Below are positions 2,929 to 20,393 of a stretch of 64,000 bases of DNA, piece after piece. The stretch comes from an uncultured Gemmatimonadales bacterium. GTDB lineage: Bacteria > Gemmatimonadota > Gemmatimonadetes > Gemmatimonadales > GWC2-71-9. The notes under the pieces are model-generated. The model had not been told where the DNA came from. It ran no database searches and saw only the letters and a list, made by a program, of their open reading frames with translations. The DNA lies in contig CAVRTU010000005.1 in assembly GCA_963724265.1 (NCBI GenBank), positions 280,800-344,799 of the forward strand, read 5' to 3'. The translations under genes were made by a program, and so were the position numbers. Numbering within the stretch: the stretch's first letter is position 1; every line of letters begins with the position of its first letter.

Positions 2929-3041
2929 GCGGCTCCTTTCGGGCCGGAGCCGGTCGGCCGCGCCCACCTTGCCAGTATCTCAGCGGCCCGGAATATTCCG
3001 GGCTGGAGTCCCGCCTCTATTCTTCAACGGTCCGAGAACTC

Positions 3042-4106
3042 ATGAACGCCGCCGACATCCGCCAGCTCCTGGGAGACCAGGCCGCCTCCCTGCTCGATTT
3101 CAACAGCCCGAAGATCGGCAGGGAGCGGCTCCACCTCCCGGGGCCCGACTTCATCGACCGGGTCTTCGGCCCCTCGGACCGGAACATCCGGACCCTGGTC
3201 AACCTGCAACGGCTCTACGGACACGGCCGCCTGGGCGGGACCGGCTACATGTCGATCCTGCCGGTGGACCAGGGCATCGAGCATTCGGCCGGGGCGAGCT
3301 TCGCGAAGAACCCGGACTACTTCGACCCGGAAAACATCATTCGGCTGGCCATCGAGGGGGGCTGTAACGCCGTGGCCACCACCTTCGGCTGCCACGGTGC
3401 AGTGGCCCGGAAGTACGCCCACAAGATCCCCTTCCTCGTCAAGATCAACCATAGCGAATTGCTGACCTATCCCAACAAGGCCGACCAGATCCTCTTCGGG
3501 ACGGTCAAGGAGGCGGCCGACCTCGGCGCCGCGGCGGTCGGGGCCACCATCTACTTCGGCTCCGATGGGGCGGGGCGGCAGATCGTCGAGATCAGCCAGG
3601 CCTTCCAGCAGGCCCACGAGATGGGCCTCGCCACCGTCCTCTGGTGCTACCTGCGGAACAACGCCTTCAAGAAAGACAAGGACTACCACCTGTCGGCCGA
3701 CCTGACTGGCCAGGCCAATCACCTCGGGGTCACCATCCAGGCCGACATCATCAAGCAGAAGCTGCCCGAAAACAACGGGGGGTACAAGGCGCTCAACGTC
3801 GAATCCTCCTACGGCAAGATCGACGACCGGGTTTACACTGAGCTGACCAGCGACCACCCGATCGACCTCTGCCGCTACCAGGTGGCCAGCTGCTACATGG
3901 GCCGCTCGGGGCTGATCAACAGCGGCGGGGCCTCGGGCAAGAACGACCTCAAGGAGGCCGTCCTGACCGCGGTCATCAACAAGAGGGCAGGGGGAACGGG
4001 GCTGATCTCGGGCCGCAAGGCCTTCCAGCGCCCGATGAAGGAGGGGGTGGCGCTCCTGAACGCAATTCAGGACGTGTACCTGGCCAAGGAGATTGGGGTA
4101 GCCTGA
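3042..4106 (+). CDS. fbaB: Class I fructose-bisphosphate aldolase (FbaB/DhnA type)
   Basis: 354-aa intact [31 protein letters not shown]..., KINHSELL and [12 protein letters not shown] are characteristic of ~350-aa class I FBA. Confidence 0.9.
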
Positions 4107-4110
4107 GACA

Positions 4111-4199
4111 GGCGGGAGGGCGGGAAGGCGGGAAGGCGGGAGGAGAGTCTGTAGTCCGTCTCGTCCTCCCGCTCTCCCGCCCTCCCGCCCTCCCGCCCC
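4111..4199. repeat. Long GC hairpin of tandem words (GGCGGGA/GGGCGGGAAGG arms)
   Basis: G-rich arm 4111-4145 (ggcgggagggcgggaaggcgggaaggcgggagg) and complementary C-rich arm 4164-4199, between the fbaB stop and tRNA-Ser. No U-tract follows. Confidence 0.75.
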
Positions 4200-4200
4200 A

Positions 4201-4287
4201 CGGCGTGGGAAGGATTCGAACCTTCGAGGGCCTTTCAGCCCTGGCGGTTTTCAAGACCGCTGCATTCGACCACTCTGCCACCACGCC
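4201..4287 (-). tRNA. tRNA-Ser (anticodon TGA)
   Basis: Minus strand GGCGTGGTGGCAGAGTGGTCGAATGCAGCGGTCTTGAAAACCGCCAGGGCTGAAAGGCCCTCGAAGGTTCGAATCCTTCCCACGCCG. It has a 7-bp acceptor stem, anticodon loop CTTGAAA, long variable arm and GGTTCGAATCC T-loop. CCA is not encoded. Confidence 0.9.
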
Positions 4288-4547
4288 AGAACCGCATTTT
4301 CCCCGGAGCCGTTGCACCGGGCCGGACAAGAATAGCCCACCCCCATTTCCCTCACCAGTTTCTGCCCCTCTGCCCCTCTGCCCCACCGATAATCTTAAAG
4401 TAACTTCTCACTAGCTAAGTCGCTGCAGTTAAATGTCCTGACTCACTTGCACCCACCTGTGGCAACCGCGCGATGCGCCTGATCACGGGAGGCCTGCCGG
4501 CCGGGCGCTACCTTTGCCGGCTCTCCCCGGATAAGGCATCGGACCCT

Positions 4548-5528
4548 ATGCGACTCATTTCCACATTGGGATTCCTCCTGGTTGCCACGCTGCTGGCCTG
4601 CAGCGTGAGCGATGGGCTGGGCACCCTCCCGCCGCCTCCGGACACCACCACGCCGGGCCTGGGCGTCGGGGCCAGCCTGGAGGGCCGGCGGCCCTTCCCC
4701 GATGACAACCCCTGGAACACCCCGGTGGACGCCGCTCCGCTGGATCCCAACTCCGCAGCCCTGATCGCTGACATCGGGCCGGGTACGGCGCTGCATCCCG
4801 ACTTCGGCGCGAACTGGAATGGGGGGCCGTTCGGCATCCCCTACATCGTGGTGGCGGGCTCGACGCCGGGGGTCGGGGTGACGTTCGACTATGCCGACGA
4901 GAGCGATCCCGGTCCCTACCCGATCCCGGCCAATGCCCCCATCGAGGGCGGAGCCGCGAGCGGCGGCGACCGCCATGTCCTGGTCATCGACCGTGACCAC
5001 TGGATGCTCTATGAACTCTTCGCCGCCTACCCGGTGGCCGGTGGTGCCCGCTGGACGGCGGGATCGGGGGCGATCTTCGACCTCGCCTCCGACGCCCTCC
5101 GCCCCGCGGGGTGGACCTCAGCTGACGCCGCCGGACTGCCGATCTTCCCCGGCCTGGTCCGCTACGACGAGGTCGTTGAGCAGGGGGTGATCCGCCATGC
5201 GCTCCGCTTCACCGTGAGCCGGAGCCGCCGGGGGTACATCTCCCCGGCCCGGCACTTCGCCTCGAGCGACACCAGCACCAGCCGTCCCCCGATGGGGATG
5301 CGGGTCCGCCTCAAGGCCGGCTTCGACCTCAGCGGCTATCCCCCCAGCGCCCGGGTCATACTCCAGGCCCTCAAGACTTACGGCATGATCGTGGCTGACA
5401 ACGGCAGCGACTGGTACCTGTCGGGGGCGCCCGATGCCCGGTGGAGCGACGACGAGCTCAACACCCTGAAGACCGTCCACGGGGGGGATTTCGAGGTGGT
5501 CAGGATGGGGCCGGTCACGACACAGTAA
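4548..5528 (+). CDS. Conserved hypothetical lipoprotein
   Basis: ORF track 4473..5528. Probable start is MRLISTLGFLLVATLLAC (lipobox LLAC). Pro/Thr linker followed by a ~280-aa domain. I do not recognise a characterised family. Confidence 0.5.
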   Translation: MRLISTLGFLLVATLLACSVSDGLGTLPPPPDTTTPGLGVGASLEGRRPFPDDNPWNTPVDAAPLDPNSAALIADIGPGTALHPDFGANWNGGPFGIPYIVVAGSTPGVGVTFDYADESDPGPYPIPANAPIEGGAASGGDRHVLVIDRDHWMLYELFAAYPVAGGARWTAGSGAIFDLASDALRPAGWTSADAAGLPIFPGLVRYDEVVEQGVIRHALRFTVSRSRRGYISPARHFASSDTSTSRPPMGMRVRLKAGFDLSGYPPSARVILQALKTYGMIVADNGSDWYLSGAPDARWSDDELNTLKTVHGGDFEVVRMGPVTTQ

Positions 5529-5591
5529 CCCGTTCTCTACCCCGTCCTGCGACCGCGCATTAGCATTAGGGACCCCAACCGACGGGATTCC

Positions 5592-7835
5592 GTGGCCACA
5601 ACGCCCGAGGGCACCCTGGCCTGTTCGCGCTGCGGGAGCGAGATCGCTCCCGGGGTGCGTTTCTGCGCCATGTGCGGCCACGATGTCTCGGGCGTGCAAG
5701 CCTCGATTTCCACCGAGCAGATGGCGGCGCAGGCGCCCCTCCCGCGGGGGGGCGAGGCGATGCAGCAGGAGATGGTGGATCATCTCCGGCACGCCACGCT
5801 GGGGGAGTACGAGATCCAGGGCGAGCTGGGACGCGGCGGCATGGCCACCGTCTACCTGGCCCACGAGATCGCGCTCGACCGCAAGGTCGCCATCAAGGTC
5901 ATGTCCCCCTCGCTGGTGACCGGCGAGGGGATGATCGAGCGCTTCAAGCGGGAGGCCCGCACCTCCGCCTCCCTCAGCCATCCCAACATCATCCCGGTCT
6001 ACGCCGTCCGGGAGACCGACCGGCTGCTCTTCTTCGTGATGAAGTTCGTCCAGGGCCGTCCCCTGGATTCGATCATCAAGGAAGTCGGCCCCCTGCCGAT
6101 CCCGATGGTCAAGGCGATCCTGGCCCAGGCCGGCAGCGCCTTCGGCTACGCCCACCGGCGCGGCATCGTCCATCGCGACATCAAGCCCGCCAACATCATG
6201 ATCGACGACGAGGGCTGGGCCGTCGTCACCGACTTCGGCATCGCCAAGGTGTCGGAATCCCAGGGGCTCACCATGACCGGGATGACGGTCGGCACCCCCA
6301 CCTACATGAGCCCCGAGCAGTGCATGGCGCAGGACGTGACCGGCGCCTCCGACCAGTACTCCCTCGGGGTCGTCGCCTACGAGATGCTGACCGGGCGGCC
6401 GCCGTTCTCTGGCGGGTCGATGATGGCCATCATGTACGGCCATTTCAACGAGCCGCCGCCGCCGATGGAGCGGTTCCGGCCCGACGTTCCCGACGATCTC
6501 CGGATGGCTGTCATGCGGATGCTGGAGAAGCCGCCCGAGCGGCGCTGGCCGTCGGTGGATGAAGCCATCGCGGCCATCGGCGTGCAGCCGCTGGCCCACG
6601 ACGACCCGACTCGCACCCGCCTGGTGGCGCTGGCCAGGGACGGTGCCTTGAAGACGCAGGCGATGATGGGCAAGCTGATTACGCCCATGAGCCCGATTCC
6701 CGGGGGCCGGAGGCAGGGGCGGACTGCTCCGCCGGCTGGCGCGGCAGGGGCGCCAACCGCGAGGGCCCAGCCGGCCGGCCGTCCGGTACCCCGGTCGGTC
6801 CCTGCGCCGGAGAAGGGCTCGAAGAAGGGCCTCCTGGTTGGCGGGGGGGTCGCATTGCTGGCGATCGTGGGTGCGCTGGCGGTGCTGCATCCCTGGCGGA
6901 AACCCACGGTGGCCGAGCCACCCGCGCCTTCGGTTACTCAGCAGGCCCCCGTCGAGCAGGCTCCCGCGCCGGAAGCAGCTCCGCCCGCTGCGTCCGGGGC
7001 CGCCGAGTCGGGCGCCGCGGCGGCGCCCCCGCCCACGACCGAGTCGCCCGCGCCGCCCAAACCGGCAGCCAAGCCGCCACTGGCCGAAAAGAAGAAGGTG
7101 GTCGGGGCGGCTCCGTCGGAGGCGGAACCGCGACTCCACGCCCAGCCCAGCAATCCCGAACCGGCGGTGACCCACACCGGTGGCCGGATCGTTCCCGACC
7201 CGCAGGAGCTCGAGCGCGACCGGACCCTGTACCTGAAGCTGCTCGCCAATGCCCAGTCGGCCAGGCAGGCCGCGGTCGCCGCCGGCGCCACCGACGCCGA
7301 CCTGGCCGGCGGTGACCTGCTCTTCAGGAACGCCCAGAACATGGCCGAAGCCCAGCAGTACATGGCCACGACTGATCCCCTCAACTCCGCTTCATCGGCC
7401 TATGTCTCGGCCGCGACCACGGCCCGCGATCGCGCCTCCGCCGCCCGCGCCGCGGTGGAGCCCGTACTCCCTCCCGCCGCGGCCCCGGCAGCACCGGCCG
7501 TCGACGAGCAGGCCAACGTCCGGCAGGTGGTGCAGGACTATTCGCGGGCCCTGGCGGCCGGGGACCTTAACGGCGCCCTCGCCGCGTTCCCCGAGATGTC
7601 GGCCGAGATGCAGGCCGGGTACCGGGATTGGTTTCAGAAGGGAATTCGCCTCGATACCAGCAAATGGGCCATCACCTCGATCAGCGTCTCCGGGACGACG
7701 GCTACGGTGACGATGAATGGGCCGGTCGCGCTGCTGGACAAGAAGGGCAAAGCGAGTGAGAAATCGGCCGGGCCCAAGTCCATCACCCTGGGCCAGGGGA
7801 CTGGGGGCTGGCACATCACCAACCTCAGCAACTGA
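5592..7835 (+). CDS. Ser/Thr protein kinase with N-terminal zinc ribbon, TM segment, Pro/Ala-rich linker and C-terminal NTF2/SnoaL-like domain
   Basis: 747-aa intact ORF (GTG start). CSRCGSEIAPGVRFCAMCGHD zinc ribbon; Hanks kinase motifs GRGGMATVY, VAIK, HRDIKPANIM, DFG, TPTYMSPEQ. Hydrophobic LLVGGGVALLAIVGALAVL segment. C-terminal VRQVVQDYSRALAAGDLNGALAAF. Confidence 0.85.
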   Translation: MATTPEGTLACSRCGSEIAPGVRFCAMCGHDVSGVQASISTEQMAAQAPLPRGGEAMQQEMVDHLRHATLGEYEIQGELGRGGMATVYLAHEIALDRKVAIKVMSPSLVTGEGMIERFKREARTSASLSHPNIIPVYAVRETDRLLFFVMKFVQGRPLDSIIKEVGPLPIPMVKAILAQAGSAFGYAHRRGIVHRDIKPANIMIDDEGWAVVTDFGIAKVSESQGLTMTGMTVGTPTYMSPEQCMAQDVTGASDQYSLGVVAYEMLTGRPPFSGGSMMAIMYGHFNEPPPPMERFRPDVPDDLRMAVMRMLEKPPERRWPSVDEAIAAIGVQPLAHDDPTRTRLVALARDGALKTQAMMGKLITPMSPIPGGRRQGRTAPPAGAAGAPTARAQPAGRPVPRSVPAPEKGSKKGLLVGGGVALLAIVGALAVLHPWRKPTVAEPPAPSVTQQAPVEQAPAPEAAPPAASGAAESGAAAAPPPTTESPAPPKPAAKPPLAEKKKVVGAAPSEAEPRLHAQPSNPEPAVTHTGGRIVPDPQELERDRTLYLKLLANAQSARQAAVAAGATDADLAGGDLLFRNAQNMAEAQQYMATTDPLNSASSAYVSAATTARDRASAARAAVEPVLPPAAAPAAPAVDEQANVRQVVQDYSRALAAGDLNGALAAFPEMSAEMQAGYRDWFQKGIRLDTSKWAITSISVSGTTATVTMNGPVALLDKKGKASEKSAGPKSITLGQGTGGWHITNLSN

Positions 7836-9324: not shown

Positions 9325-9702
9325 TCAGGGGGGCGGCGGCGGCACAACCGTCACGAAGGCGGTATCCGCGAAGCCGTCGAGCGAGGCGATAATGCTGTCC
9401 AGGCCCAGACCGGCCCCGGTCACGATGCCGCTGACGCCGATCGTCGCGACGGCCGGATTGCTCGTGTTCCAGGTGACCGCCCGGCTGGCCAGCAGGGCGC
9501 CCGTGGCGTCGAGGCCGAATCCGTGCAGGGTATCGACCGCGCCGGGGATCATCTGGAGCGATTCGGGGACGATCCGCACCGCGGCGACCGGGCCGGGCCC
9601 GATGTCCGTGTCGGTGCTGCAGGCGGCCCAGGTCAGAGCCGAGCACAGGCTCAGGGCGACAGCACGACGGGTAGCCGATCCAGGTCCGGTACGAGGCGCC
9701 AT
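9325..9702 (-). CDS. Bacterial Ig-like (Big_2) domain lipoprotein
   Basis: C-terminal part of ORF 9325..10992 read from the internal ATG at 9702: MAPRTGPGSATRRAVALSLCSALTWAAC (lipobox), then VTWNTSNPAVATIGVSGIVTGAGLGLDSIIASL, typical of Big_2. Confidence 0.7.
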   Translation of the reverse strand: MAPRTGPGSATRRAVALSLCSALTWAACSTDTDIGPGPVAAVRIVPESLQMIPGAVDTLHGFGLDATGALLASRAVTWNTSNPAVATIGVSGIVTGAGLGLDSIIASLDGFADTAFVTVVPPPPP

Positions 9703-9821
9703 GTGCTGGCCTCCGGCCCCCGAGGGGCGGCGACAGATGACCCGCGGAAGAATCCGTTGAATCTGCCAATCTGCGGATTCACTGTCAAAGGGCGCGGGAA
9801 GCAGCGTCCCGCGCCCGATGA

Positions 9822-12085
9822 TTACCGCTTCTGCTGGATGTTCCGCTGGATCTCGAGCGCGATCGAGTCCGCCCGGGCGGCCGCGGCGGTGTCCCCCTTC
9901 TGCCGCATGCTGGACGCGGCCCCGCTGTAGGCCACCAGGTAGAGCTGGAGCATCGAGGCGGATGGCGGATCGACCCAGCCGTGCGGCCGGTCCTTGGTGG
10001 CCGTCTGCCAGTGGTAGACATCCCAGAGCAGGTTCATGGTCCGCGGATAGTCGAGATAGGCCAGCCCGCGGTTGAGCAGAATCGTGTCGTTGGGGACCAC
10101 CGCCGTGTATTGCAGCCGGCGGCCGAACCCGGCCGAGACCAGATAGGGGGTCAGGTCGAAGGTCGCGTCCGGGTAATTCCCGTCGCTCCAGCTGAAATAG
10201 ACGGGCCGGGCGCCGATGTTGTCCCGGATCATGAACAGCGTGGCCAGGTCCTTGAGCTCGAGGTACTGGTCGCCGAAGCGGACCTGGAGGCTGTCGAACT
10301 TGACGCCCGAGCCCTTGGGAATGGAAGACAGCTCGGGCAGCGAATCGATCTGGGCCGGGGTGAGCTGCAGCGCCGGCTTGGTGGGGCGCACCCAGGTCCC
10401 GGTGCGCCAGATCGGCGCCGCGCCGGCCGGGTTGAACTCCGGTGTCACCCGGCGCGACAGCTGCTTGAGGTGCCACCGGGTGTTCATCAGCGAGAGGTTG
10501 GCCAGGGTGACGTCGGTCCGGATGCCCTCGACCTCCTGCGCGTACCAGAGCGGGAAGGTGTCGTTGTCGCCGGCGGTGATCAGGATGCCGTAGGGCTCGA
10601 CCGACTGCAGCATGTCGATCGCGGCGTCGCGCGCCATGGTCTCGTTGGCGCGCGACGCCGTCAGCGTGGTTGCCCGCCAGCGGCACCAGCGCCAGGGCCA
10701 GGACCGGCGAGGCGGCGAGCCACCGGCTCCGCTCGCTGCCCCGGGCCTTGAGCGACTCGACGATCGCCGTCATCAGCGCGCCGAGGCCGACCGCCACCCA
10801 GAGGCCGAAGGCCGCGAAGGAGACCACGAAGAAGTAGTCTCGCTCGCGGACCTCGCGGGCCACCTGGTCGCGCCCGATGTCGTACGAGTAGCCGTACTTG
10901 AAATTGAGGTAGAAGATGAGCGCAATGGTCAGCGTGCCCATCAGCGCCGTCGAGGCCGCCGCGGCCCGCTTGTCCTTCTGCCACAGCGTCATCGGCGCCG
11001 AACAGGCCGAGGACGGCGAAGAGCCCGGTGAAGATCCCGTTGGCCGGCGCCCAGTCGCGGGCGAACTGCCAGTTGAAGTACTGCCAGTAGTTGCCGAGCT
11101 GCGAGATGAAATCGGCCTGGCGCTGCCAGACCGGAGGCTTGCCGTACTGGACCCGGTTGAGCACCTCCATCAGCGCGTTGCTGAAGAAGCCGATCGGCTC
11201 GCCCTCGTTGATCGGGGGGAAGTGGGCCGCGCGGATCGGCAGGAAGAGGTAGTTGGGGCCGATCGCGACCAGCACCGCGATCGTGCCCAGATAGAAGATC
11301 GGGCGGCGGAACTCGGCCGGGTCGCTCCAGGCGGTATAGAGCAGCAGGGTGCCGTAGGCCAGGATGATGGCACCGCGTCCCGACATCGGTCCCGTGACCA
11401 GGACGGCGCCCAGCCCCGACACCGCCAGCGCCAGGGTCAGCGCCATCATCAGCACCCACGGCTTGAGCGCCAGGCGCCAGTCGGTCCAGAGGACGTAGGT
11501 CGCCACGGCGATCGACCCCAGCACGCCCATCATGTGATTGGTCGAGCTGATCGCGATGATGTAGGCGATCAGCACCAGCCACCGGTCGCGGTGGGGGCCC
11601 GGCTCGTCGTCCGCCCAGTGCACCCCCAGCCACGTCACCAGCGCCGTGGAAAACATCGAGACGGTGTACACCTTCTCGTTGACCGTGGACTGGTTCCAGA
11701 CCGTCCAGCTCGTGGCCGACACCAGCGTGCCGGCGAAGGCCGCCGCCAGCCGGGCCCAGCGCACCGGGACCACGTCCCGCATCCACCGCTCGGCTACCAG
11801 GAACCAGAGCCCGGCCGAGGCGGCGCTGGTGACCGCGGCGAAGAGGTTGATCCGCACCGCGTAGCTGGCCGCCAGCGGCAGCGCCCCGAAGGTGTGGGCC
11901 AGCATCGTGAACAGCGGATTTCCCGGCGGGTGCGGGATGCCCAGCACATACGCGGCGGCCAGGTACTCGGAGGTGTCCCAGAACGCCGTGGTCGGCGCCA
12001 GCGTGGCCACGTAGATGCCGAAGACGAGCAGCGAGGTCAGTGCGGCGTAGCCGTAGGGAGGGCGGGTCTCGGTCGAGTCGGTCAT
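9822..12085 (-). CDS. DUF2723-family polytopic membrane protein (putative glycosyltransferase), paralog 1; interrupted
   Basis: N-terminal piece is the 10661..12085 frame (TLAPTTAFWDTSEYLAAAYVLGIPHPPGNPLF). The middle piece is the 9325..10992 frame (MTLWQKDK...YLNFKYGYSY...RERDYFFV). The C-terminal piece is 9822..10637 (ITAGDNDTFPLWYAQEVEGIRTDV). Frame changes lie near 10990 and 10680. Confidence 0.8.
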
Positions 12086-12092
12086 GTACCCT

Positions 12093-12176
12093 GGGGAACG
12101 GGGAAAGTGGGAGCAGGAAGCAGGGAGCAGGGGGTGTCGGGAATCATCCCGCTCCCTGCTCCCCTCTCCCTGCTCA
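12093..12176. repeat. Hairpin of GGGAGCA-type tandem words
   Basis: tgggagcaggaagcagggagcaggggg / loop / cccgctccctgctcccctctccctgctc, lying between the DUF2723 start and the purH stop. Confidence 0.7.
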
Positions 12177-12184
12177 CCCGGGTT

Positions 12185-13715
12185 TTAGTGTCTGAACTGC
12201 CGCCGGCCGGTGAACACCATCGCCAGGCCGTGCCGGTCGGCGGCGGCGATCACGTCGGCGTCGCGGATCGAGCCGCCGGGCTGGATGATCGCGGTCACCC
12301 CCGCCGCCGCCGCCTCGTCCACTCCGTCGGCGAAGGGGAAGAAGGCGTCCGAGGCCATCACGGCGCCCTTCGGGTCGTGCCCCTGCTGGCGGGCCTTGTG
12401 CACCGAGAGGAACGAGCTGTCCACCCGGCTCATCTGTCCGGCGCCGATGCCGATGGCCATCTCGTCCCGGGCCAGCAGGACGGCGTTGGACTTGACACTG
12501 GCCACGGCGGCCCAGGCGAACCGGAGGTCGTCCCACTCCGCGTCGGTGGGCGGACGGGAGGTGACCACCTTCCACTCCGCCTCGGAAGGCTCGAAGGTGA
12601 ACCGGTCCTGCAGCAGGAAGCCGCCCCGGATCCGCTTGACGTCGAGGGCCGGCTCGCCGTGGCCGACCGGCAGCTCGACCACGCGGAGGTTCTTCTTTCT
12701 GGCGAAGAGCTGCCAGCGCCTCCTCGTGGAACGAGGGCGCCACCACCACCTCGAGGAAGAGCTCGTCGAGCGCCGCAGCCGCCCGGGCATCCACCACCGT
12801 GTTGAAGGCGACGACCCCGCCAAAAGCCGACTGCCGGTCGCCGGCGACGGCCTTGCGGGCCGCCTCCTCGGCGGTGACCCCGACGGCCATGCCGCAGGGC
12901 GTGGTGTGCTTGATCACGGCGCAGGCGGGGCGGATCGGCCACAGCGCCACGGCGCTCATCGCGGCGTCGAGGTCGAGCAGGTTGTTGAAGGAGAGTTCCT
13001 TGCCCTGGCGCTGCTTGAGGTCGCGGATGCCGCGGGGCTCGTCGGTGGCGTAGAGCGCCGCGCGCTGCGACGGATTCTCGCCGTAGCGCAGTCCCATCAC
13101 CTTTTCGACCGAGACGGTGATCTGGCTGGGCAGCCCGTCCTCGCGGGGAGTCAGGTAGCGCGCGATCGCGGCGTCGTAGTTCGCGGTGTGGCTGAAGACC
13201 TTGGCCGCGAGCTGGCGGCGGCACTCGGTAGACACGGTACCCGCCCGGAGCATCTGAAGCACCCAGCCGTAGTCCGTTGGATCGACCACCACCATCACCG
13301 AGTCGTGGTTCTTGGCGGCGGAGCGCAGCATCGCCGGGCCGCCGACGTCGATGTTCTCGATGGCGTCCTCGAAGCTCACGTTCGGCTTGGCGACCGTTTC
13401 GCGGAACGGATAGAGATTCACCGCCAGCAGGTCGATCGGTTCGATCTTGTGGTGCGCCATCGACGTGCGGTGCTCGGCCAGGTCGCGCCGGCCCAGCAGG
13501 CCCGCGTGGATCACCGGGTGGAGGGTCTTGACCCGGCCGTCGAGGATCTCGGGGAAACCGGTGACCGACTCCACCGTGACCGCCGGGACTCCGGCCGCGC
13601 GGAGAGCGGCGTGGGTCCCGCCGGTGGAGATGATCTGCCAGCCCATCGCCACCAGTTCCTGGGCGAAGGGGACGATGCCGCGCTTGTCGCTGACGGAAAT
13701 CAATGCACGGGGCAT
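12185..13715 (-). CDS. purH: Bifunctional AICAR transformylase / IMP cyclohydrolase; one frame break
   Basis: 12174..13715 frame gives MPRALISVSDKRGIVPFAQEL...KHTTPCGMAVG...APSFHEEAL. The C-terminus is in the 12185..12823 frame (LFARKKNLRVVEL...KSNAVLLARD...IQPGGSIRD...MVFTGRRQFRH). The frame change is near 12715. Confidence 0.92.
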
Positions 13716-13721
13716 GAGGAC

Positions 13722-14328
13722 TCAGCCTCTGGGCTCCTGCGCGAACTGCACCGGGACCGGGTGCCCGGCCCGCGCGGCGGCCAGGACCACGGCCGGGAGC
13801 AGTTGATGTTCGACGTCCAGGACCCGGGCCCCCAGCCGTTCCGGGGTGTCGTCCGGGAGGACGGGGACCCTGGCCTGGGCCAGGATCGCGCCGCGATCGT
13901 AGACTTCGTCCACCAGGTGGACGGTGGCGCCCGACTCGGGCCGGCCCGCGGCCAGCACCGCCTCGTGGACCCGGCGGCCGTACATTCCCCCGCCGCCGAA
14001 TTCCGGAAGCAGGGCAGGGTGGATGTTGATGATCCGGCCCCGGTAACTTCGCGATGACGGCGGCCGGCACCAGCTTGAGAAACCCGGCCAGGACGACCAG
14101 GTCGACCCGTGCCTCCTCGAGATGCCTGAGCCACTCCGCGCCGTCGCGGTGGTCAGCCAGAACCCGGGTGGCCACGCCGTGTTTCCGGGCCCGCTCCAGC
14201 CCTCCGGCCCGCGGAGTGTTGCTCAGGACCAGGACGACTTCCGCCGGGGCCCCCGGGCCGAGGGCCCCGATCAGGGCCTCCAGGTTGCTGCCCCCGCCCG
14301 AAATGCAGACCCCCACCCGCATCGGCAT
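13722..14328 (-). CDS. purN: Phosphoribosylglycinamide formyltransferase; one frame break
   Basis: N-terminus [20 protein letters not shown]...[11 protein letters not shown] (12430..14364 frame). C-terminus ...[38 protein letters not shown] (13722..13985 frame). The frame change is near 14040. Confidence 0.88.
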
Positions 14329-14433
14329 GGCGCAACAAAGTAATCGGCGAGGCGTTCGATTCACAGTCGCGCTACCGGGGCACGGTCGCGCTTCCGCGGG
14401 ACTTGATGCGAGGCGGGAGACTGCGTGGCCGGG

Positions 14434-15546
14434 CTACCCCTTCACCATCCTCCAGGCGTGATACGCCCCACGCGCGACCGTCGATGCGGTCCGCCGGCGG
14501 GCTTGAAGGGTCAGCTCCTTTCCCTTGACCAGTTCCTGCATCGGCATCCCCGCCTCGATCCGGGTTCCTTCCTCCAGCAGTTTCTCCAGCAGCCGGGGAC
14601 GGTCACCGGCCCGGCGGAAGGCGGCCAGGCGCCACTTCATGACCCGCATCATCGGGAACGGCCGGGGCATCGCCCCCAGATGCAGGCGGAGGGGGACGCC
14701 GGCGAGCTCCGCCGCGGCCTGGAGCCAGCGGAGAAGGAGGTCGCGATTGCGGATTTCGCGCGAGGTGAGTCGCTCGCCGATGACGTCCCAGTAGATGGCC
14801 GCGTCGCCCCCCATGAGCACGGCCGCGTCCAGCAGGTAGTGCAGGCGGAATGCGTTCGTCCCCTCACCGGCCGCGTGCGTCAGGGTGTGCCAGAACAGCT
14901 CGGTCACGCTGGGGACGCGCAAGGTGAGCTTGTCGCGCGCGACCACCTGCGACTCGAACATCTGGCGGCGCCAGGCGTCCGGCGGCTTGATCTCGCGCGA
15001 GGTCGAGGTGTGGATCTCCACCGCCACCCGGTTGGCGCCGGCCAGCGGGATCAGGTGCCAGAGGTCGACGGGGGTCAGGTTCGGGTCGGCCGCGAACTTG
15101 TAGCCGGACTTCTTCAGGTCCTCCCAGACCGAGGAAGCGTGCTCGGCCGGAAGCAGCACATCGACATCGATGGTGGAGCGGGCATCGATGTAGGGGTAGC
15201 GGTCGGCCAGGAGCCTGCGGGCGATTCCCTTGAGGAAGACCGCCGGGATGCCGCCGGCGGTGAGCAACTCCGCCAGCCGGATTGCCTCGGCTTCGACCAG
15301 GAGCCCGTTCGCCGTTTCCACCCGGGCCCGCCTGATCAGCCAGGTCCAGAAGGCGGGCGGCAGCTCATCGCCGACGCCCAGTCCCCTGAGGCGCCGGTAC
15401 AACCAGATCGTGACCTGCTCGTAACTGACCAGCTCGCGCAGGCCTGACGGGTCGGTCCGCAGCCAGGCATCCTTGAGACTGGCGGCATCCCACCCCCCGC
15501 GCAGGCGCACTGTCTGGTACAGGACCTCAGCCGCGTTGAGCGTCAT
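14434..15546 (-). CDS. Uncharacterised-nucleotidyltransferase-family protein (NTP_transf_5-like), RiPP-cluster associated
   Basis: 370-aa intact ORF. Its ATG is 3 nt after the B2 stop. IPAVFLKGIARRLLADRYPYIDARSTIDVDVLLP... resembles the nucleotidyltransferase that co-occurs with PqqD/B2/HPr-kinase genes. Family assignment is from memory and not computed. Confidence 0.65.
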   Translation of the reverse strand: MTLNAAEVLYQTVRLRGGWDAASLKDAWLRTDPSGLRELVSYEQVTIWLYRRLRGLGVGDELPPAFWTWLIRRARVETANGLLVEAEAIRLAELLTAGGIPAVFLKGIARRLLADRYPYIDARSTIDVDVLLPAEHASSVWEDLKKSGYKFAADPNLTPVDLWHLIPLAGANRVAVEIHTSTSREIKPPDAWRRQMFESQVVARDKLTLRVPSVTELFWHTLTHAAGEGTNAFRLHYLLDAAVLMGGDAAIYWDVIGERLTSREIRNRDLLLRWLQAAAELAGVPLRLHLGAMPRPFPMMRVMKWRLAAFRRAGDRPRLLEKLLEEGTRIEAGMPMQELVKGKELTLQARRRTASTVARGAYHAWRMVKG

Positions 15547-15549
15547 TGA

Positions 15550-15966
15550 TCAGGTTGCCGCGGAGGGATCGGGGAAGACAGCGATCACGGTGTGGGCTCC
15601 CGGCGCCTCCGGTTCGGGTTCGAGGTAGAGCAAGTTCTCGAGCAGCAGCCAGGCGTGGGCGGCCAGCTTCCCGTCGGGCCCCCGCCGGACCCCGATGACC
15701 AGTTGCAGCGGACGCCCGGCCCCGCGCAGCAGGTGATAGAGTACCGCGGCCCGCTTGAGACAGGTATACCGCCAGGGGCCCGGCAGCCGGCGCAGAACAT
15801 CATCCACCCAGCCGGCCAGGGCCGCGTCCTCGAAGGGCGGCATCGGGCGACGCTGCCCCAGGCGGGCCACCAGCCGCTGGAACGAGACGAGCAGGATCAG
15901 CGGCGGGATCCACAGCGAGGCCGCCAGAGCCCGTATCCGGATCCCCACGGACAACCGCTCACTCAC
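15550..15966 (-). CDS. Lasso-peptide B2-type leader peptidase (transglutaminase-core-like cysteine protease)
   Basis: ORF track 15550..16005. The preferred GTG at 15966 forms a GTGA overlap with the PqqD stop. Has candidate catalytic Cys (PWRYTCLKRAAVLYHLL) and His (GKLAAHAWLLLENLLYLEP); ~138 aa. Confidence 0.8.
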   Translation of the reverse strand: MSERLSVGIRIRALAASLWIPPLILLVSFQRLVARLGQRRPMPPFEDAALAGWVDDVLRRLPGPWRYTCLKRAAVLYHLLRGAGRPLQLVIGVRRGPDGKLAAHAWLLLENLLYLEPEPEAPGAHTVIAVFPDPSAAT

Positions 15967-16238
15967 TCGCTGCGGTCCTCGATGACCAGCTTGGCGCCGA
16001 GGCACCGGTCGAGGAAGTGCCGGGCGCTCACTTCCGCCTTCTCGGGCGTCACCTCGAAGCGCTTGACCAGGGCGGCGCCGATTTCGGCCAGCGTGGCTGA
16101 GGGCTTCAGGGCCTCGAGGATGGCCAGTCCGGTCTCGTTGACGGTGAAATAGCGCCGGCTGCCGAGATGGAGCACTACGCCCTCGCCCTCGAGGGCGGTC
16201 AGGCGGAGCTCCGGGTGAGCGCGGTATCGGGTCGTCAT
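15963..16238 (-). CDS. PqqD-family RiPP recognition element (lasso B1-like)
   Basis: Internal ATG at 16238 forms an ATGA overlap with the kinase stop. 91 aa: MTTRYRAHPELRLTALEGEGVVLHLGSRRYFTVNETGLAILEALKPSATLAEIGAALVKRFEVTPEKAEVSARHFLDRCLGAKLVIE, the PqqD pattern. Confidence 0.8.
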   Translation of the reverse strand: MTTRYRAHPELRLTALEGEGVVLHLGSRRYFTVNETGLAILEALKPSATLAEIGAALVKRFEVTPEKAEVSARHFLDRCLGAKLVIEDRSE

Positions 16239-17227
16239 GGGGGTGCGATGGTTGCGAGAATGGACGGATCGAGGAAGAGGTCCCGTCCCAGGATGACGCG
16301 GAGGCACCGGGCCTGCCGGGCCAGGGCGTTGAGGAGATCGAGATGCGATTGGGCCAGGTCGGGCTCCAGCGCCACCCAGGCCGACCAGCGCACCAGCTCC
16401 GCGAGCACCTCGGCTCCCCGGATTGGCTGGGCTGAAGTGTAGTCGGTGCCGACGCTGGTGAAGAGAATGATGTCAGGATGGACGGTCCCGATCCAACGGC
16501 CGCCGAGTTCTTCGGGCGTGAAGAGCCGCTTGCCCCGCTGCGCGATCAATCGGCCCCCCCGGCGCGCCAGGAATTGCTGCCCCTCTGGCCGGAGGGCGAT
16601 CGGCGTCCGGTAGGCGTGGACGACGACCTCCGGGCCCGAGCGAGACAGGAAGGCGATGTCGTCGCAGCCGACTTCCCACCCCAGGCTGGCCAGCAGGGCC
16701 GCGGTCGTGGATTTGCCGGCGTGAGTGTTGCCAGCCAGGAGCCAGCCGCGGCCTGCTGGATCCACGGCGGTCGCGGCGTGGACGTGGTGCCACCCCACCC
16801 GGCGCAGCAGGAAGATGAGGGCGACCATCCCGAATCCGCGGAGGCACTCATCCAGGCGATCGTGCGCCTCGGGGGAGAGGATCAGTTCCGCCTCGGCTGT
16901 CTGGCCGTTCAGCCTGGCAACTGCGGGGGCGCCCTCCCACGAGACGAGAACCTCGCCTTGGGGCTCACCCCCCGAGCGGATCAGAACGTTTCCCTGTCTG
17001 AAAGTGGGCCGTGTATCGGTCGAGAGGTCGGGCGGGGAGCCGATTTCGACCCGAATCGTCAGCGGACGGGGCGGGGTCAGCTCCGATCCGTCGAGCCAGG
17101 TCTGGATTGCCCGGGTCAGTTCGGGATGGGCGCCGATTACCGTGAAGGAGGGCACGGGGGAAAGATCACCCGCCCACCAATCGAAACGCCAGACTCTCGA
17201 GGGAGTCTGGCGTTTGGTGCCGCTCAA
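16235..17227 (-). CDS. HPr-kinase-related (HprK C-terminal-like) P-loop kinase
   Basis: 330-aa ORF. Walker A LLAGNTHAGKSTTAALLA followed by GCDD, as in HprK-like RiPP kinases. The TTG start at 17227 is doubtful because the first codons overlap a hairpin; a GTG at 17155 is an alternative. Confidence 0.75.
   Translation of the reverse strand: MSGTKRQTPSRVWRFDWWAGDLSPVPSFTVIGAHPELTRAIQTWLDGSELTPPRPLTIRVEIGSPPDLSTDTRPTFRQGNVLIRSGGEPQGEVLVSWEGAPAVARLNGQTAEAELILSPEAHDRLDECLRGFGMVALIFLLRRVGWHHVHAATAVDPAGRGWLLAGNTHAGKSTTAALLASLGWEVGCDDIAFLSRSGPEVVVHAYRTPIALRPEGQQFLARRGGRLIAQRGKRLFTPEELGGRWIGTVHPDIILFTSVGTDYTSAQPIRGAEVLAELVRWSAWVALEPDLAQSHLDLLNALARQARCLRVILGRDLFLDPSILATIAPP
17184..17214 (-). terminator. 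Hairpin after precursor A1 (attenuator/partial terminator candidate)
   Basis: Minus-strand RNA AAACGCCAGACUC-CCUCGA-GAGUCUGGCGUUU, a 13-bp stem with a weak U tract. The stem core ACGCCAGACU is shared with the terminator after A3. Confidence 0.45.
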
Positions 17228-17245
17228 TACTGGGAACTGAGCCGA

Positions 17246-17368
17246 TCAGCCGGGGCAGTTCTCACCGGTGCAGGGAGCAAGGTCCCCGGAAGCAAGCGTC
17301 AGTTCAGCCAGCGAGGCCTCTTCAGTGAGTGTGGGCTCAACGAAGGGCTTTCTTTCGACGTGCGGCAT
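17246..17368 (-). CDS. RiPP precursor peptide A1 (40 aa)
   Basis: Not in the ORF track (<60 aa). My translation: MPHVERKPFVEPTLTEEASLAELTLASGDLAPCTGENCPG*. AGGAGG sits 5 nt upstream of the ATG. The leader is homologous to A2/A3. Confidence 0.75.
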   Translation of the reverse strand: MPHVERKPFVEPTLTEEASLAELTLASGDLAPCTGENCPG

Positions 17369-17452
17369 CGGTGCCTCCTGAGCGGGTAAGTGCGGAGTCC
17401 CCTCTCCAAGGGACGACGTCGCCTTTCTCGCAATTCTCGCACCGCTACAAAT

Positions 17453-17461
17453 CGTGATGTT
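17453..17461 (-). promoter_or_regulatory. Conserved upstream box AACATCACG (A1 copy)
   Basis: Identical 9-mer 85 nt upstream of the A1 ATG, within a locally AT-rich stretch containing TTGACT. Flanking similarity continues to ...ATTGC about 25 nt downstream. Confidence 0.4.
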
Positions 17462-17571
17462 GATTAGTGTAAGTCAATATTTTATTTGCACTTGTAAATC
17501 TTCGGTATCTGCAATTCCGGACCCATGTCGGCAGGATTCATCAACAGCGATGGGAGAGGCGGGTGTGACAA

Positions 17572-17598
17572 CGCCGGATTTCCTGGGGAAATCCGGCG
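17572..17598 (-). terminator. Hairpin after precursor A2
   Basis: cgccggatttcc-tgg-ggaaatccggcg, a 12-bp stem 26 nt after the A2 stop, followed on the minus strand by UUGU only. Confidence 0.45.
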
Positions 17599-17624
17599 CT
17601 GACACTGCTGGGTGAGGCGTTGGC

Positions 17625-17813
17625 TCAGTTGCGATCGCGACCGTAGGCATGGCCGTGGCCGTGACTATGACGCTGGCCTTGGCTCTGGCCCTGGTCAAAT
17701 TGCTGGGCCGAGGCACTGCTGGCGGGGGACCCGGAAGTCAGGGTGATGTCCGCAAGGTCCGCCTCTTCGACAACTGTGGGATCCACAAAGTGCTGTTTCG
17801 TCGTGTCCGGCAT
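17625..17813 (-). CDS. RiPP precursor peptide A2 (62 aa)
   Basis: ORF track: MPDTTKQHFVDPTVVEEADLADITLTSGSPASSASAQQFDQGQSQGQRHSHGHGHAYGRDRN. GGAGG SD. The leader aligns with A1/A3. Confidence 0.75.
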   Translation of the reverse strand: MPDTTKQHFVDPTVVEEADLADITLTSGSPASSASAQQFDQGQSQGQRHSHGHGHAYGRDRN

Positions 17814-17903
17814 AGGTACCTCCGTTAAGGCAGGCGAACCCTATGTCCTCCCGGCACAGGAATCACGATTATCAGGATAAGCAATGCGCGGGCCAAAGCG
17901 ATA

Positions 17904-17912
17904 CGTGATGTT
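17904..17912 (-). promoter_or_regulatory. Conserved upstream box AACATCACG (A2 copy)
   Basis: Identical 9-mer exactly 91 nt upstream of the A2 ATG, the same spacing as for A3. Confidence 0.4.
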
Positions 17913-18028
17913 CGGGATCATAACACGATGGGGCATCATAGGTTCAGAAGGTACTATAGGGCAATCGCTAGCTGACTGTGGCCTGCCTCCCTCACCGAAT
18001 CTGTGGACCCGCCGCCAACTCAACGAGC

Positions 18029-18068
18029 CAAAACAAAGACGCCAGACTCGGCTTTCAGTCTGGCGTCT
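18029..18068 (-). terminator. Intrinsic terminator after precursor A3
   Basis: Minus-strand RNA AGACGCCAGACU-gaaagccg-AGUCUGGCGUCU followed by UUGUUUUG. Confidence 0.7.
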
Positions 18069-18096
18069 GCACTCCCGAGGAAGATTCCGAGGGGGC

Positions 18097-18216
18097 TCAG
18101 TGGTGATGTCTGTCGTACACCCTGGGGCTGGTATTCGAGGTCAGGGTGATCTCGGCCAGTTGTGCTTCCTCGGTGAGCTTGGGCTCAACAAAGGGCCTTC
18201 TCATCGCTTCGGACAT
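18097..18216 (-). CDS. RiPP precursor peptide A3 (39 aa)
   Basis: Not in the ORF track. My translation: MSEAMRRPFVEPKLTEEAQLAEITLTSNTSPRVYDRHHH*. GGAGGAG SD upstream. Confidence 0.75.
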   Translation of the reverse strand: MSEAMRRPFVEPKLTEEAQLAEITLTSNTSPRVYDRHHH

Positions 18217-18306
18217 ACTCTCCTCCAATTGGGCAGGGGCCATCGGCACCCGTTCGACGCTCATGGTTCGGCAACCTTACGGTGCAATCTCCAAGCCACT
18301 GCAATT

Positions 18307-18315
18307 CGTGATGTT
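18307..18315 (-). promoter_or_regulatory. Conserved upstream box AACATCACG (A3 copy)
   Basis: Identical 9-mer 91 nt upstream of the A3 ATG. Confidence 0.4.
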
Positions 18316-18422
18316 GAAAATTACAACACCTTGCATCGCAATGGCATCGGAATGTGCCAAATGTGGACCCCTGCATCACTGTGGGCCGGACCCCTCATCG
18401 GATCTGTGGAGTGCCCGCACCT

Positions 18423-19022
18423 TCATCGGGTGGCGAGAATCCACCGCGCGGCAGCCGCCAGGTCATCCTCCAGCACGAATTCGGAAGTTGAATCCATTCC
18501 CGTCGGCGCTGCCGGAAGACCGGGACCAACCCCGATTCCTCGGCCCCCCAGCAGTCTTGCCGGCAGGAGGTCCGTCACCCGATCTCCTATCCACCAGCTC
18601 TGCGCCGGGTCGATGCCAAATCGTTCGATGGCCCGCCGGTAGAGATCCAGCCCGGGTTTCCGACAGCCGCAGGGGCCGCTGATTTCGGGCAGGTGCGGGC
18701 AATGGTACTGGGCATCCGGGGCTCCACCCGCCTGTGCTAACAGTTCGGCCGTCCGGGCCGCCACCGCCTCGTACTGCCTGGGGGTGATCAGGCCGCGAGC
18801 GATTCCCGACTGGTTGGTCACGATGATCAGCAGAAAGCCGGCTCGCTTGAGGCTTGCCGCGGCCTCGCCCGCCCCGGGCAGCAGACGGACCTGTACGGGA
18901 TCGTTGAGGTATCCGGGATCCTCAAGCAGGGTCCCGTCCCGGTCGAGAAAGACCGCTCGTCGAGGGGCAGAGGGGCGGAGGGGCCCTAAAGGACTCCCTG
19001 TCGGTCGCAGGGGGGCAGCCAC
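18423..19022 (-). CDS. gmhB: D,D-heptose 1,7-bisphosphate phosphatase-like HAD-IIIA hydrolase
   Basis: C-terminal third of ORF 18423..20393: AVFLDRDGTLL (DxDxT), IIVTNQSGIARG, YHCPHLPEISGPCGCRKPG (zinc-site pattern), WWIGDRVTD. The putative GTG start at 19022 is uncertain. Confidence 0.75.
   Translation of the reverse strand: MAAPLRPTGSPLGPLRPSAPRRAVFLDRDGTLLEDPGYLNDPVQVRLLPGAGEAAASLKRAGFLLIIVTNQSGIARGLITPRQYEAVAARTAELLAQAGGAPDAQYHCPHLPEISGPCGCRKPGLDLYRRAIERFGIDPAQSWWIGDRVTDLLPARLLGGRGIGVGPGLPAAPTGMDSTSEFVLEDDLAAAARWILATR
18961..19017. repeat. GGGGCAGA-word array plus conserved motif copy 2
   Basis: gaggggcagaggggcggagg + GGCCCTAAAGGACTCCCTGTCGGTCGC (18982-19008, plus strand, antisense to the flanking genes) + agggggg. 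Confidence 0.7.
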
Positions 19023-19023
19023 G

Positions 19024-20393
19024 CTACTCCTCAAGCGCCCGCTTGAGAGCGCCGCCGACCAGGTTCGAAGCTTGCTTCCGGGAAGCGTCCGTGGATCGAG
19101 AAGGACCCTGCCGTTGGCCACGCGCGTGATCACCGGTGGGTCGCCCAGGCGAAGCCGAAGGGCGAGGCCGTCGGCCCCAAGCGGTCCCGGGTCGATAGCG
19201 ATGAGCGTGGTGGGCAGCGCGGCCCCGGGGAATGCTCCCCCGCCGACGGCGGACTCCCCCCTGAGCAGGGCGGGCGGGCGGGCGGGGGGGAGGGCGGGAA
19301 CCAGTGAGCGATGGAGACTCTGCGCCTGCGCTTCCAATTCAGCGGCGCTCCTGGTGAGCATGCGGAGTACCGGGATTTCCTCGCGGGCCCGGGCCGGATC
19401 ACGGTACAGCGACAGCGTCGCCTCGAGGGCGGCGAGGGTGAATCGATCGGGCCGTACCGCCCTCGCGAACGGGGCCCGACGGCAGCGTTCCACCAGCTCC
19501 CCACGCCCTACCAGGCACCCCGCCTGCGGCCCGCCCAGCAGCTTGTCCCCGCTGAACAGCACGAGGTCCGCCCCCGCGGCGACTGCCTCCGGCACCCGGG
19601 GCTCATCGGTCAGCCCCCACGGGGTGAGGTCCGCCAGCAGCCCGCTCCCGACGTCGTGCAGGTAGGGCACTCCCGCCTCGTGCGCCAGCTCCGCCAGCGC
19701 CGAGGGCGGCGGGGTGGCGACGAATCCCCGCTGCTCGAAGTTGGAGCGGTGCACGGTGAGGATCGCCGCGGCGCCATCGAGGCCCCGCCGGTAGTCGTCG
19801 AGGTGGGTCCGGTTCGTCGTGCCCACTTCCAGCAGCCGCGCCCCGCTCGTGGCCAGGATGTCCGGGATCCGGAAGCTGCCCCCGATCTCGATCAGCTCGC
19901 CCCGTGAAATCAGCACCGGCCGCCCCGCCGCCACCGTCGAGAGCGCGAGGACCAGCGCCGCCGCCGCGTTGTTGACTGCAAGTGCGTCCTCCGCCCCCGT
20001 GAGTTCACTGAGCAGGGCGCGGCAATGATCGGCACGCTGCCCCCGCGTGCCCGAGTCCAGGTCGTACTCCAGGGTGCTGTAGTCGCGGGCCACCGCCGCC
20101 ATGGCGTCGGTGGCGGCAGCGGCAAGGGGAGCACGGCCCAGGTTGGTGTGGAGCACCACACCGGTGGCGTTGAGCACCGGTCGGAGTGACCGGGTGACCC
20201 TGCGCGCCAGTCGCTCGGCGATGTCACCGGCCCAGTCTGGAGGGACTCCCGAGCGGCCCGAGCGGGCGGATTCAAGTGACTCCCGAATCGCCGCCACCAG
20301 GACGGAGCGGGGGTGGGCCTGCAACAACTCCACGAGGGCCGGCTCCGACAGCAGCCGGTCGACCGATGGCAGGTTCCGACGGGGGTCGGTCAT
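19024..20393 (-). CDS. selA: L-seryl-tRNA(Sec) selenium transferase; 3' end frameshifted into gmhB in this sequence
   Basis: MTDPRRNLPSVDRLL...VLNATGVVLHTNLGRAPL...LVLFSGDKLLGGPQAG (PLP-Lys region)...RVANGRVLLDPRTLP. The plausible C-terminus KQASNLVGGALKRALEE* is in another frame, ending at TAG 19024-19026. The frame change is near 19075. Confidence 0.85.

Follow-up and report, generated by a model that had tools for sequence, protein, structure and literature searches.

Described systems and the locus

Promoters read by sigma-54 (RpoN) follow the consensus TGGCACG-N4-TTGCW at −24/−12 and have an upstream activator site, often together with a DNA bend introduced by IHF. Ribosomal peptide clusters of uncultured phyla are usually silent in the laboratory. 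Linear polyphosphorylated peptides (LPP) have been described from Bacillota (Popov et al. 2026, PMC13381572), and in the microcin C cluster a terminator hairpin lies between mccA and mccB (PMC6495379). Here, we analysed a peptide locus in a 64-kb stretch of DNA (hereafter the window) from an uncultured soil bacterium of the Gemmatimonadales (assembly GCA_963724265.1, contig CAVRTU010000005.1, positions 280,800 to 344,799), in which three very short precursor genes, A3, A2 and A1, are followed by four enzyme genes, the first of them coding for a ScmC-like protein. The whole cluster is on the minus strand. All comparisons below are of sequences from metagenome-assembled genomes; on this basis, each precursor probably constitutes its own cassette, which would be transcribed from a sigma-54 type −24/−12 promoter and would end in a conserved RNA stem-loop.

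The closest known enzyme set, as judged from gene content, appears to be that of LPP. Both cluster types have a separate recognition element for ribosomally synthesised and post-translationally modified peptides (RiPP recognition element, RRE), an HprK-like kinase and an uncharacterised NTP transferase, and both lack a macrolactam cyclase. They also have in common one to three precursors with a conserved N-terminus and a variable C-terminus, and a leader motif of the form aromatic-xxPx-aliphatic, which reads FVxPxL here and [Y/W]xxPx[L/V/I/F/A] in LPP. In contrast, the locus encodes a lasso-type B2 (Transglut_core3) protease, whereas LPP clusters encode an SpI signal peptidase, of which none was found among the cluster neighbours. 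It further has no adjacent MsbA-like exporter, belongs to Gemmatimonadota rather than Bacillota, encodes a kinase-like protein that is weakly HprK-like and is known from its genes alone. Lasso clusters of the paeninodin type share with the locus the B1 (PqqD) and B2 proteins, an HprK-like kinase and NTP_transf_5, and many cores of the present family likewise end in Ser; they differ in that no cyclase is present here and the cores do not suit the ring-forming rules. The likeness to microcin C lies in the stem-loop right after a very short precursor gene and right before the first enzyme gene, a placement that would give an excess of precursor mRNA along with read-through. The differences are a stem core that is invariant across a phylum-level family, a weak U-tract and one hairpin per precursor. 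A literature search returned no paper on this cluster type in Gemmatimonadota.

Probable sigma-54 type promoters

An element of the sigma-54 −24/−12 type precedes each of the three precursor genes:

18283–18298, minus strand: sigma-54 type −24/−12 element of A3, TGGCTTGGAGATTGCA; predicted start near 18272
17880–17895, minus strand: sigma-54 type −24/−12 element of A2, TGGCCCGCGCATTGCT; predicted start near 17869
17429–17444, minus strand: sigma-54 type −24/−12 element of A1, CGGTGCGAGAATTGCG; predicted start near 17418

All three read GG-N7-ATTGC (that is, GG-N8-TTGC), which is the spacing of the sigma-54 consensus, with GG at −25/−24, TTGC at −15 to −12 and GC at −13/−12. This similarity had been recorded as GG-N6-7-ATTGC in an earlier note made from the letters of the window; its presence was confirmed, but the gap is seven nucleotides in every copy. 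The note had also given each precursor its own promoter-like unit, which the comparison supports, and had taken a conserved 9-mer farther upstream for a promoter element or operator. This reading needs correction, as the core promoter would be the −24/−12 element that the note had mentioned as further similarity.

For comparison, 66 related loci, all from Gemmatimonadota, were retrieved from species-representative genomes using a profile of the ScmC-like protein. In these loci and the window taken together, GG-N8-TTGC starts 55–100 nt upstream of the start codon in 58 of 70 precursors, against an expectation of 0.015 per such stretch derived from the loci's own background. Positions outside the search pattern are also GGCACG-like, with C or T at −23 in 53 and at −21 in 59 of 60 sequences, and G or A at −20 in 58. 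Given the exact spacing, this frequency and the consensus-like additional bases, each precursor looks as if it had its own sigma-54 type promoter. The promoter block showed neither a consensus RNA fold, as expected of a DNA site, nor a match in Rfam.

The elements resemble described sigma-54 promoters in having GG and GC one helical turn apart, TTGC at −15 to −12 and consensus-like bases at −23, −21 and −20. Further points of resemblance are the repeats at about −110 to −140 and, between these and the promoter, the CAR-N4-TTR element at its set position. The elements differ in that the T at −26 is not conserved and that an additional invariant 9-mer, AACATCACG, occupies −43 to −35; we know of no described sigma-54 promoter with such a 9-mer at this position. 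A literature search yielded no paper that ties RpoN or sigma-54 to the precursor-gene promoter of a ribosomally made, modified peptide. The promoter is thus of an ordinary kind, in a setting for which no precedent was found.

Genes for sigma-54 activators occur in related Gemmatimonadales loci. One of these, L005, from the same order as the window, contains an NtrC-type response regulator (Sigma54_activat, E = 6e-72) and a histidine kinase, which are divergent from and adjoin the precursor. Two such activator and kinase pairs flank its peptide cluster (3003–5625 and 9426–12487, both on the minus strand), one divergent beside the precursor and the second downstream, and they are candidate cluster regulators in that genome. 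A further locus, L015, has one sigma-54 activator. GAFTGA or GSFTGA motifs together with Sigma54_activat were found in the activators of both loci. Another sigma-54-like site in the window, TGGGTCCGGAATTGCA at 17510–17525 on the minus strand, upstream of the A1 box, is not conserved in orthologous cassettes, so it is probably due to chance.

Stem-loops after the precursors

A stem-loop follows each precursor:

18027–18068, minus strand: A3 stem-loop (18037–18068) with the T-rich tail TTGTTTTGGC; covariance-model score 37.6 bits (sense strand) and 24.6 bits (antisense strand)
17565–17605, minus strand: A2 stem-loop, a CGCCGG/CCGGCG variant with the weak tail TTGTCAC; 27.0 bits
17184–17214, minus strand: A1 stem-loop, of the family-wide type; covariance-model score 44.2 bits (sense strand) and 35.9 bits (antisense strand)

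The earlier note had read a hairpin after each precursor, and all three indeed fold strongly, at −30.0, −32.4 and −36.0 kcal/mol (z-scores −3.1, −7.4 and −3.7). It was likewise right that the A1 and A3 hairpins have the stem core ACGCCAGACU/AGUCUGGCGU in common and that the A3 hairpin alone has a good U-tract, as this was the only one to pass the terminator scan (12 pairs, followed by TTGTTTTGGC). The A3 stem-loop and its tail look like an intrinsic terminator. The distance from the A1 stem-loop down to the first enzyme gene, with its likely GTG start at 17155, is 28 nt.

Across the family, almost every precursor is followed by a stem-loop, usually 15–30 nt past the stop codon. In most loci the last one lies between the last precursor and the first enzyme gene, 30–100 nt before the ScmC-like gene. 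The tails are T-enriched and A-poor but weak, with a mean of 3.9 T in 11 nt. In an alignment of 39 copies, the six pairs at the centre (CGCC[A/G]G with C[U/C]GGCG) are invariant and the flanking pairs, three outer and five inner, covary, with changes on both sides at 9 of the 14 pairs and a covariation score that no shuffle reached. In this alignment 93.6% of cells are paired, a figure inflated by the selection of the hairpins partly for their ability to pair. The pair count was therefore redone on 44 hairpins picked by the invariant anchors alone, which gave 32 G·U against 9 A·C pairs, an excess that points to RNA on the sense strand.

A covariance model retrieved the three hairpins and nothing else from the window. 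Of its matches in related loci (654 kb searched), nearly all lay just upstream of the ScmC-like gene or between precursors; the E-values are rough owing to a shortened calibration. Wherever both strands matched, the sense score exceeded the antisense score. Known RNA families gave three sub-threshold matches, each well under its gathering score. Apart from a few marginal matches, the hairpin is, on these scans, a cluster-specific RNA element. The proposal of the earlier note that leaky hairpins set the precursor-to-enzyme ratio is retained as something that the conserved hairpin could do. Its picture of generic hairpins is not, as the core is invariant and nearly restricted to these clusters.

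The hairpin fits a leaky terminator, and it fits a protective 3′ end or stabiliser. It is possible, if unlikely, that the stem-loops act altogether as protective 3′ ends, processing sites or sites for an RNA-binding protein, with transcription of the enzyme genes independent of termination efficiency. The six central pairs, invariant in 39 sequences amid covarying outer and inner pairs, speak for this, as such constraint exceeds the needs of a plain terminator, and so do the U-weak tails and the single pass among three in the terminator scan. On the other hand, the stem-loops look like terminators in their position (15–30 nt past the stop codon), in their GC-rich stem and in a tail enriched in T and poor in A, and terminators with weak U-tracts have been reported in GC-rich bacteria. 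A palindrome acting as double-stranded DNA, as an operator or activator site, is a much weaker proposition, which we regard as very improbable. The repeat is nearly perfect with an invariant core, sigma-54 activator sites are often palindromes and the antisense strand also scores well with the covariance model; however, the sense-strand excess of G·U over A·C pairs in the anchor-only set and the higher sense score at every two-strand site argue for RNA, and a loop varying from 3 to 9 nt would alter the spacing of half-sites.

The 9-mer box

The 9-mer was found at three sites upstream of the −24/−12 elements:

18307–18315, minus strand: AACATCACG box of A3, at about −43 to −35
17904–17912, minus strand: AACATCACG box of A2, a match to the 9-mer
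17453–17461, minus strand: AACATCACG box of A1, a match to the 9-mer

These are the positions at which the earlier note had seen it, and its frequency is far above chance, with four copies in the window against 0.20 expected and none of 100 shuffles reaching four. The fourth copy (57353–57361) was rejected as a regulatory site: it lies in GC-rich coding sequence with no promoter-like sequence after it, and is therefore probably fortuitous. The distances from the last box base to the A of the ATG were reproduced at 85, 91 and 91 nt for A1, A2 and A3, whose starts are at 17368, 17813 and 18216.

In the form [A/C]ACATCAC[G/A], the box precedes GG by exactly 9 nt in 15 of the 17 cassettes of seven genomes, namely the window and six relatives (L067, L069, L072, L001, L002 and L003) with ScmC-like proteins 56–87% identical to that of the window. 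In the same genomes a TTAY element follows about 7 nt further upstream, and the bases in between vary. The far-upstream blocks of the two ancient cassette types differ, yet the box is present in both. Precursors of the other loci lack the exact 9-mer in their upstream sequence, and their aligned promoters showed no equivalent at its position. As it is kept at a fixed spacing amid varying flanks and is absent elsewhere, the box at about −43 to −35 is, on this comparison, constrained yet confined to one sub-lineage. It is a putative accessory site for a lineage-specific regulator beside the closed promoter complex.

That the box is a functionless remnant of the duplications is highly unlikely: paralogous cassettes are expected to share some sequence, but nearby non-coding bases have diverged, with 5′ untranslated regions 28–42% identical, while the 9-mer is intact at 9 nt from GG in both ancient cassette types and all seven genomes. 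Least credible of all is that the box is the core promoter, as a sigma-70 or extracytoplasmic-function (ECF) −35 element or a classical operator, with the sigma-54 likeness incidental, since, although it is the most strictly conserved stretch among the three cassettes and two weak 9-of-12 sigma-70 matches occur near A2, these have no equivalent positions in A1 and A3, none of the cassettes has a −10 hexamer 16–18 nt from the box, there is no ECF pattern (AAC-N16/17-CGT) and most of the family has no box while GG-N8-TTGC is present nearly everywhere. Manual −35/−10 pairings around the box also failed in at least two cassettes each. As an IHF site it was rejected too: some copies read WATCAA, but the TTR half was found on neither strand.

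Separately, another copy of the 9-mer AACATCACG was noticed within the third leader of L001 (5844–5852), coding for Asn-Ile-Thr there, and the A2 and A3 leaders of the window have GACATCACC and GAGATCACC (Asp/Glu-Ile-Thr) at the same place, near 17750 and 18140. The occurrence within the L001 leader is probably a coincidence.

Upstream elements and 5′ untranslated regions

Several further elements were located around the predicted promoters:

18379–18409, minus strand: CCACAG-N19-CCACAG direct repeat upstream of A3, at about −137 and −112 from the predicted start
18361–18366, minus strand: CCACAT, a third repeat copy beside CCACAG-N19-CCACAG upstream of A3
17976–18006, minus strand: CCACAG-N19-CCACAG direct repeat upstream of A2, the same repeat as in A3
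18324–18333, minus strand: CAAGGTGTTG, CAR-N4-TTR element of A3, 36 nt upstream of the −24 GG
17526–17546, minus strand: TGTTGATGAATCCTGCCGACA, upstream block of A1, conserved in orthologues of the last cassette
17398–17413, minus strand: UCCCUUGGAGAGGGGA, small stem-loop upstream of A1 within the predicted 5′ untranslated region, recognised by eye in the alignment

The CCACAG-N19-CCACAG repeat occurs twice in the window, against 0.13 expected, each time upstream of a cassette. It is also present upstream of the first cassette in L067–L071 and is a candidate binding site for an activator (bacterial enhancer-binding protein, bEBP). The A1 block reads TGTTGATGAATCC..CCGACA, with an orthologue consensus of GTTGAGGA...CCGACA; because it is unlike the CCACAG repeats, the A1-type and A2/A3-type cassettes may answer to different activators. 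The CAR-N4-TTR element is similar to the IHF consensus core; of 60 family promoters, 19 have it 36 ± 1 nt upstream of GG, compared with 1.1 in shuffles. A1-type cassettes of L067, L069 and L072 have retained the UCCCUUGGAGAGGGGA stem-loop with some changes, and the ribosome-binding region that comes after it, ACCCGCCGCTGGAGGCACCAATG, hardly varies.

Proposed working of the cassettes

In the proposed order, a cassette would start at its 5′ end with an upstream block that holds a possible activator site (CCACAG-N19-CCACAG for A3 and A2, the other block for A1), followed by an A/T-rich element, IHF-like in its core, at about −61 to −52 and by the AACATCACG box at about −43 to −35. GG at −25/−24, TTGC at −15 to −12, a 5′ untranslated region of about 50–56 nt and GGAGG would come next, and the leader, with the general pattern (K/R)PFVxPxLxEEAxLAxxTLxS, the hypervariable core and a stem-loop 20–30 nt past the stop would close the cassette at the 3′ end. 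A sigma-54 activator encoded elsewhere in the genome would switch on all cassettes upon a signal, and the 9-mer would additionally bind a lineage-specific factor beside the polymerase. The stem-loops would stop or stabilise most transcripts, leaving more precursor than enzyme mRNA, and read-through from the last cassette would supply the four enzyme genes. Between the last hairpin and the start of the enzyme genes no promoter motif was apparent by eye, although no scan of this gap was made in the related loci. What the alignments show is the set of motifs with their fixed spacing and conservation, and the covariation of the stem-loop at the RNA level; from these we infer actual use of sigma-54, the activator sites, a partner of the box and partial termination.

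Several observations weigh against this arrangement. The T at −26 of the sigma-54 consensus is not conserved in the 60 sequences, about 12 of the 70 precursors are without a strict GG-N8-TTGC, and no activator with a GAFTGA motif was found in the window. The box matches no binding consensus known to us. The A1 and A2 hairpins have strong stems and tails that the terminator scan rates as poor U-tracts, so termination there may be weak or absent, and the paired percentage of the hairpin alignment is inflated by its selection.

We consider it a tentative possibility, and a doubtful one, that the locus represents a new ribosomal peptide class in Gemmatimonadota, with a lasso-type protease and recognition protein, no cyclase and a sigma-54 promoter per precursor, in which the 9-mer and the CGCCAG/CUGGCG stem are recognised by dedicated DNA- and RNA-binding factors, through which the amounts of precursor and enzymes are coordinated. 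Were such factors involved, the cassettes would be more than a promoter and a terminator. Should each precursor depend on sigma-54 together with an activator, heterologous expression by standard means would not succeed; a promoter swap or a supplied activator would remedy this. The −24/−12 promoter, the FVxPxL...TLxS leader and the CGCCAG...CTGGCG stem-loop also provide a genome-mining signature for very short precursor genes of Gemmatimonadota. Two questions arise, namely which factor recognises the 9-mer at −43 to −35 and what keeps six stem pairs unchanged.

Precursors and probable cassette duplication

The precursor genes are as follows:

18097–18216, minus strand: precursor A3, MSEAMRRPFVEPKLTEEAQLAEITLTS followed by NTSPRVYDRHHH; leader HMM E = 3e-15; ribosome-binding site GGAGG at 18222–18226
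17625–17813, minus strand: precursor A2, MPDTTKQHFVDPTVVEEADLADITLTS followed by GSPASSASAQQFDQGQSQGQRHSHGHGHAYGRDRN; ribosome-binding site GGAGG at 17819–17823
17246–17368, minus strand: precursor A1, MPHVERKPFVEPTLTEEASLAELTLAS followed by GDLAPCTGENCPG; ribosome-binding site GGAGG at 17374–17378

The A3 start at 18216 (MSEAMRRPFVEP..., preceded by GGAGG) is consistent with its orthologues. ScmC-like homologues number in the hundreds, and the named ones come from metagenome-assembled genomes of Gemmatimonadales and other Gemmatimonadota, except for one labelled Rokubacteria. Using a leader profile built from A1–A3, one to three precursors were found immediately upstream of the ScmC-like gene in nearly all loci. 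Their leaders follow the pattern (K/R)PFVxPxLxEEASLAxVTLxS, and the hypervariable cores contain much Gly and His and often have Ser as their last residue. Many of these cores contain HGHGH runs and end in Ser or Asn-Ser (e.g. L027, L028, L034 and L041), and the A2 core (17625–17700) contains RHSHGHGHAYGRDRN. These features hint at metal binding or at modification of the C-terminal Ser, as in kinase-tailored lasso peptides.

Pairwise DNA identity among the three cassettes is 56–66% in the promoter block and 62–67% in the leader-coding part, against 28–42% in the 5′ untranslated region and 30–43% in the core-coding part; on these values, the cassettes are paralogues. Three distinct relatives with ScmC-like identities of 70–87% (L067/L068, which have one protein, L069–L071 and L072) carry two cassettes in a gene order identical to that of the window, which has three. 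Copy number has therefore changed within a short evolutionary time, in keeping with tandem duplication. The tandem duplication with subsequent core diversification that had been proposed for the locus is supported by the paralogy of the cassettes, the low identity of the cores and a copy number of one to three between relatives. As a separate observation, L067 (9802–9990) and L068 (1442–1555) encode the same ScmC-like protein, but the adjoining precursor has 62 residues in the former and 37 in the latter through a frameshift, which is an indel error in the core region of one of the assemblies.

Enzyme genes and neighbourhood

The enzyme genes and the gene on the opposite side of the precursors are:

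18423–20393, minus strand: selA-HAD gene, flanking the precursor genes on the side opposite the enzyme genes
16235–17155, minus strand: ScmC/HprK-like P-loop protein, likely GTG start at 17155, first enzyme gene after the cassettes
15963–16307, minus strand: PqqD-type recognition protein
15550–16005, minus strand: lasso-B2-like protease
14434–15546, minus strand: NTP_transf_5 nucleotidyltransferase

The four enzyme genes are followed by purN and purH. The ScmC-like protein matches ScmC (E = 3e-4) and HprK_rel_A weakly, belongs by precomputed assignment to PF27840, and matches the HPr kinase P-loop at E = 0.003. The B2 protease matched NF033537 (E = 4e-17) and Transglut_core3 (4e-15), and the recognition protein matched PqqD (3e-13), so that the B2 cysteine protease and B1/PqqD protein of a lasso cluster are both present. 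Nevertheless, assignment as a lasso cluster was rejected: no asparagine-synthetase-like macrolactam cyclase was found in the window, the 66 loci or the annotated neighbourhoods. The window contains no PP-loop motif, PP-loop matches in the 66 loci lie only outside the clusters (two of them in apparent GMP-synthase-like sequence) and no Asn_synthase occurs among the annotated neighbours of the relatives. The lasso core rule (Gly, Ala, Ser or Cys at position 1 and Asp or Glu at 7–9) excludes A2 and A3; A1 (G1...E9) alone could fit it, provided that cleavage takes place after the conserved Ser.

Windowed GC is 0.51–0.62 across 17.2–18.5 kb and 0.66–0.77 on each side, in agreement with the AT-rich cassette segment noticed earlier. 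The selA and HAD phosphatase sequences form a single 656-residue frame in the window (18423–20393, minus strand), and in L067, L069 and L072 they are two neighbouring genes (455 and about 193 residues). The single frame is either a real fusion or the result of a lost stop codon. Both purH and purN look frameshifted (12174–14364, minus strand). The purH family match covers residues 2–341 of a 513-residue open reading frame (positions 6–347 of a 510-position profile), with the C-terminal part in another frame (12185–12823), and purN is split (13722–13985 versus 12430–14364). Either an indel error of the assembly or a pair of pseudogenes would account for this, and single-base details of the window should accordingly be treated with caution. 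The cassette features recur in independent assemblies.

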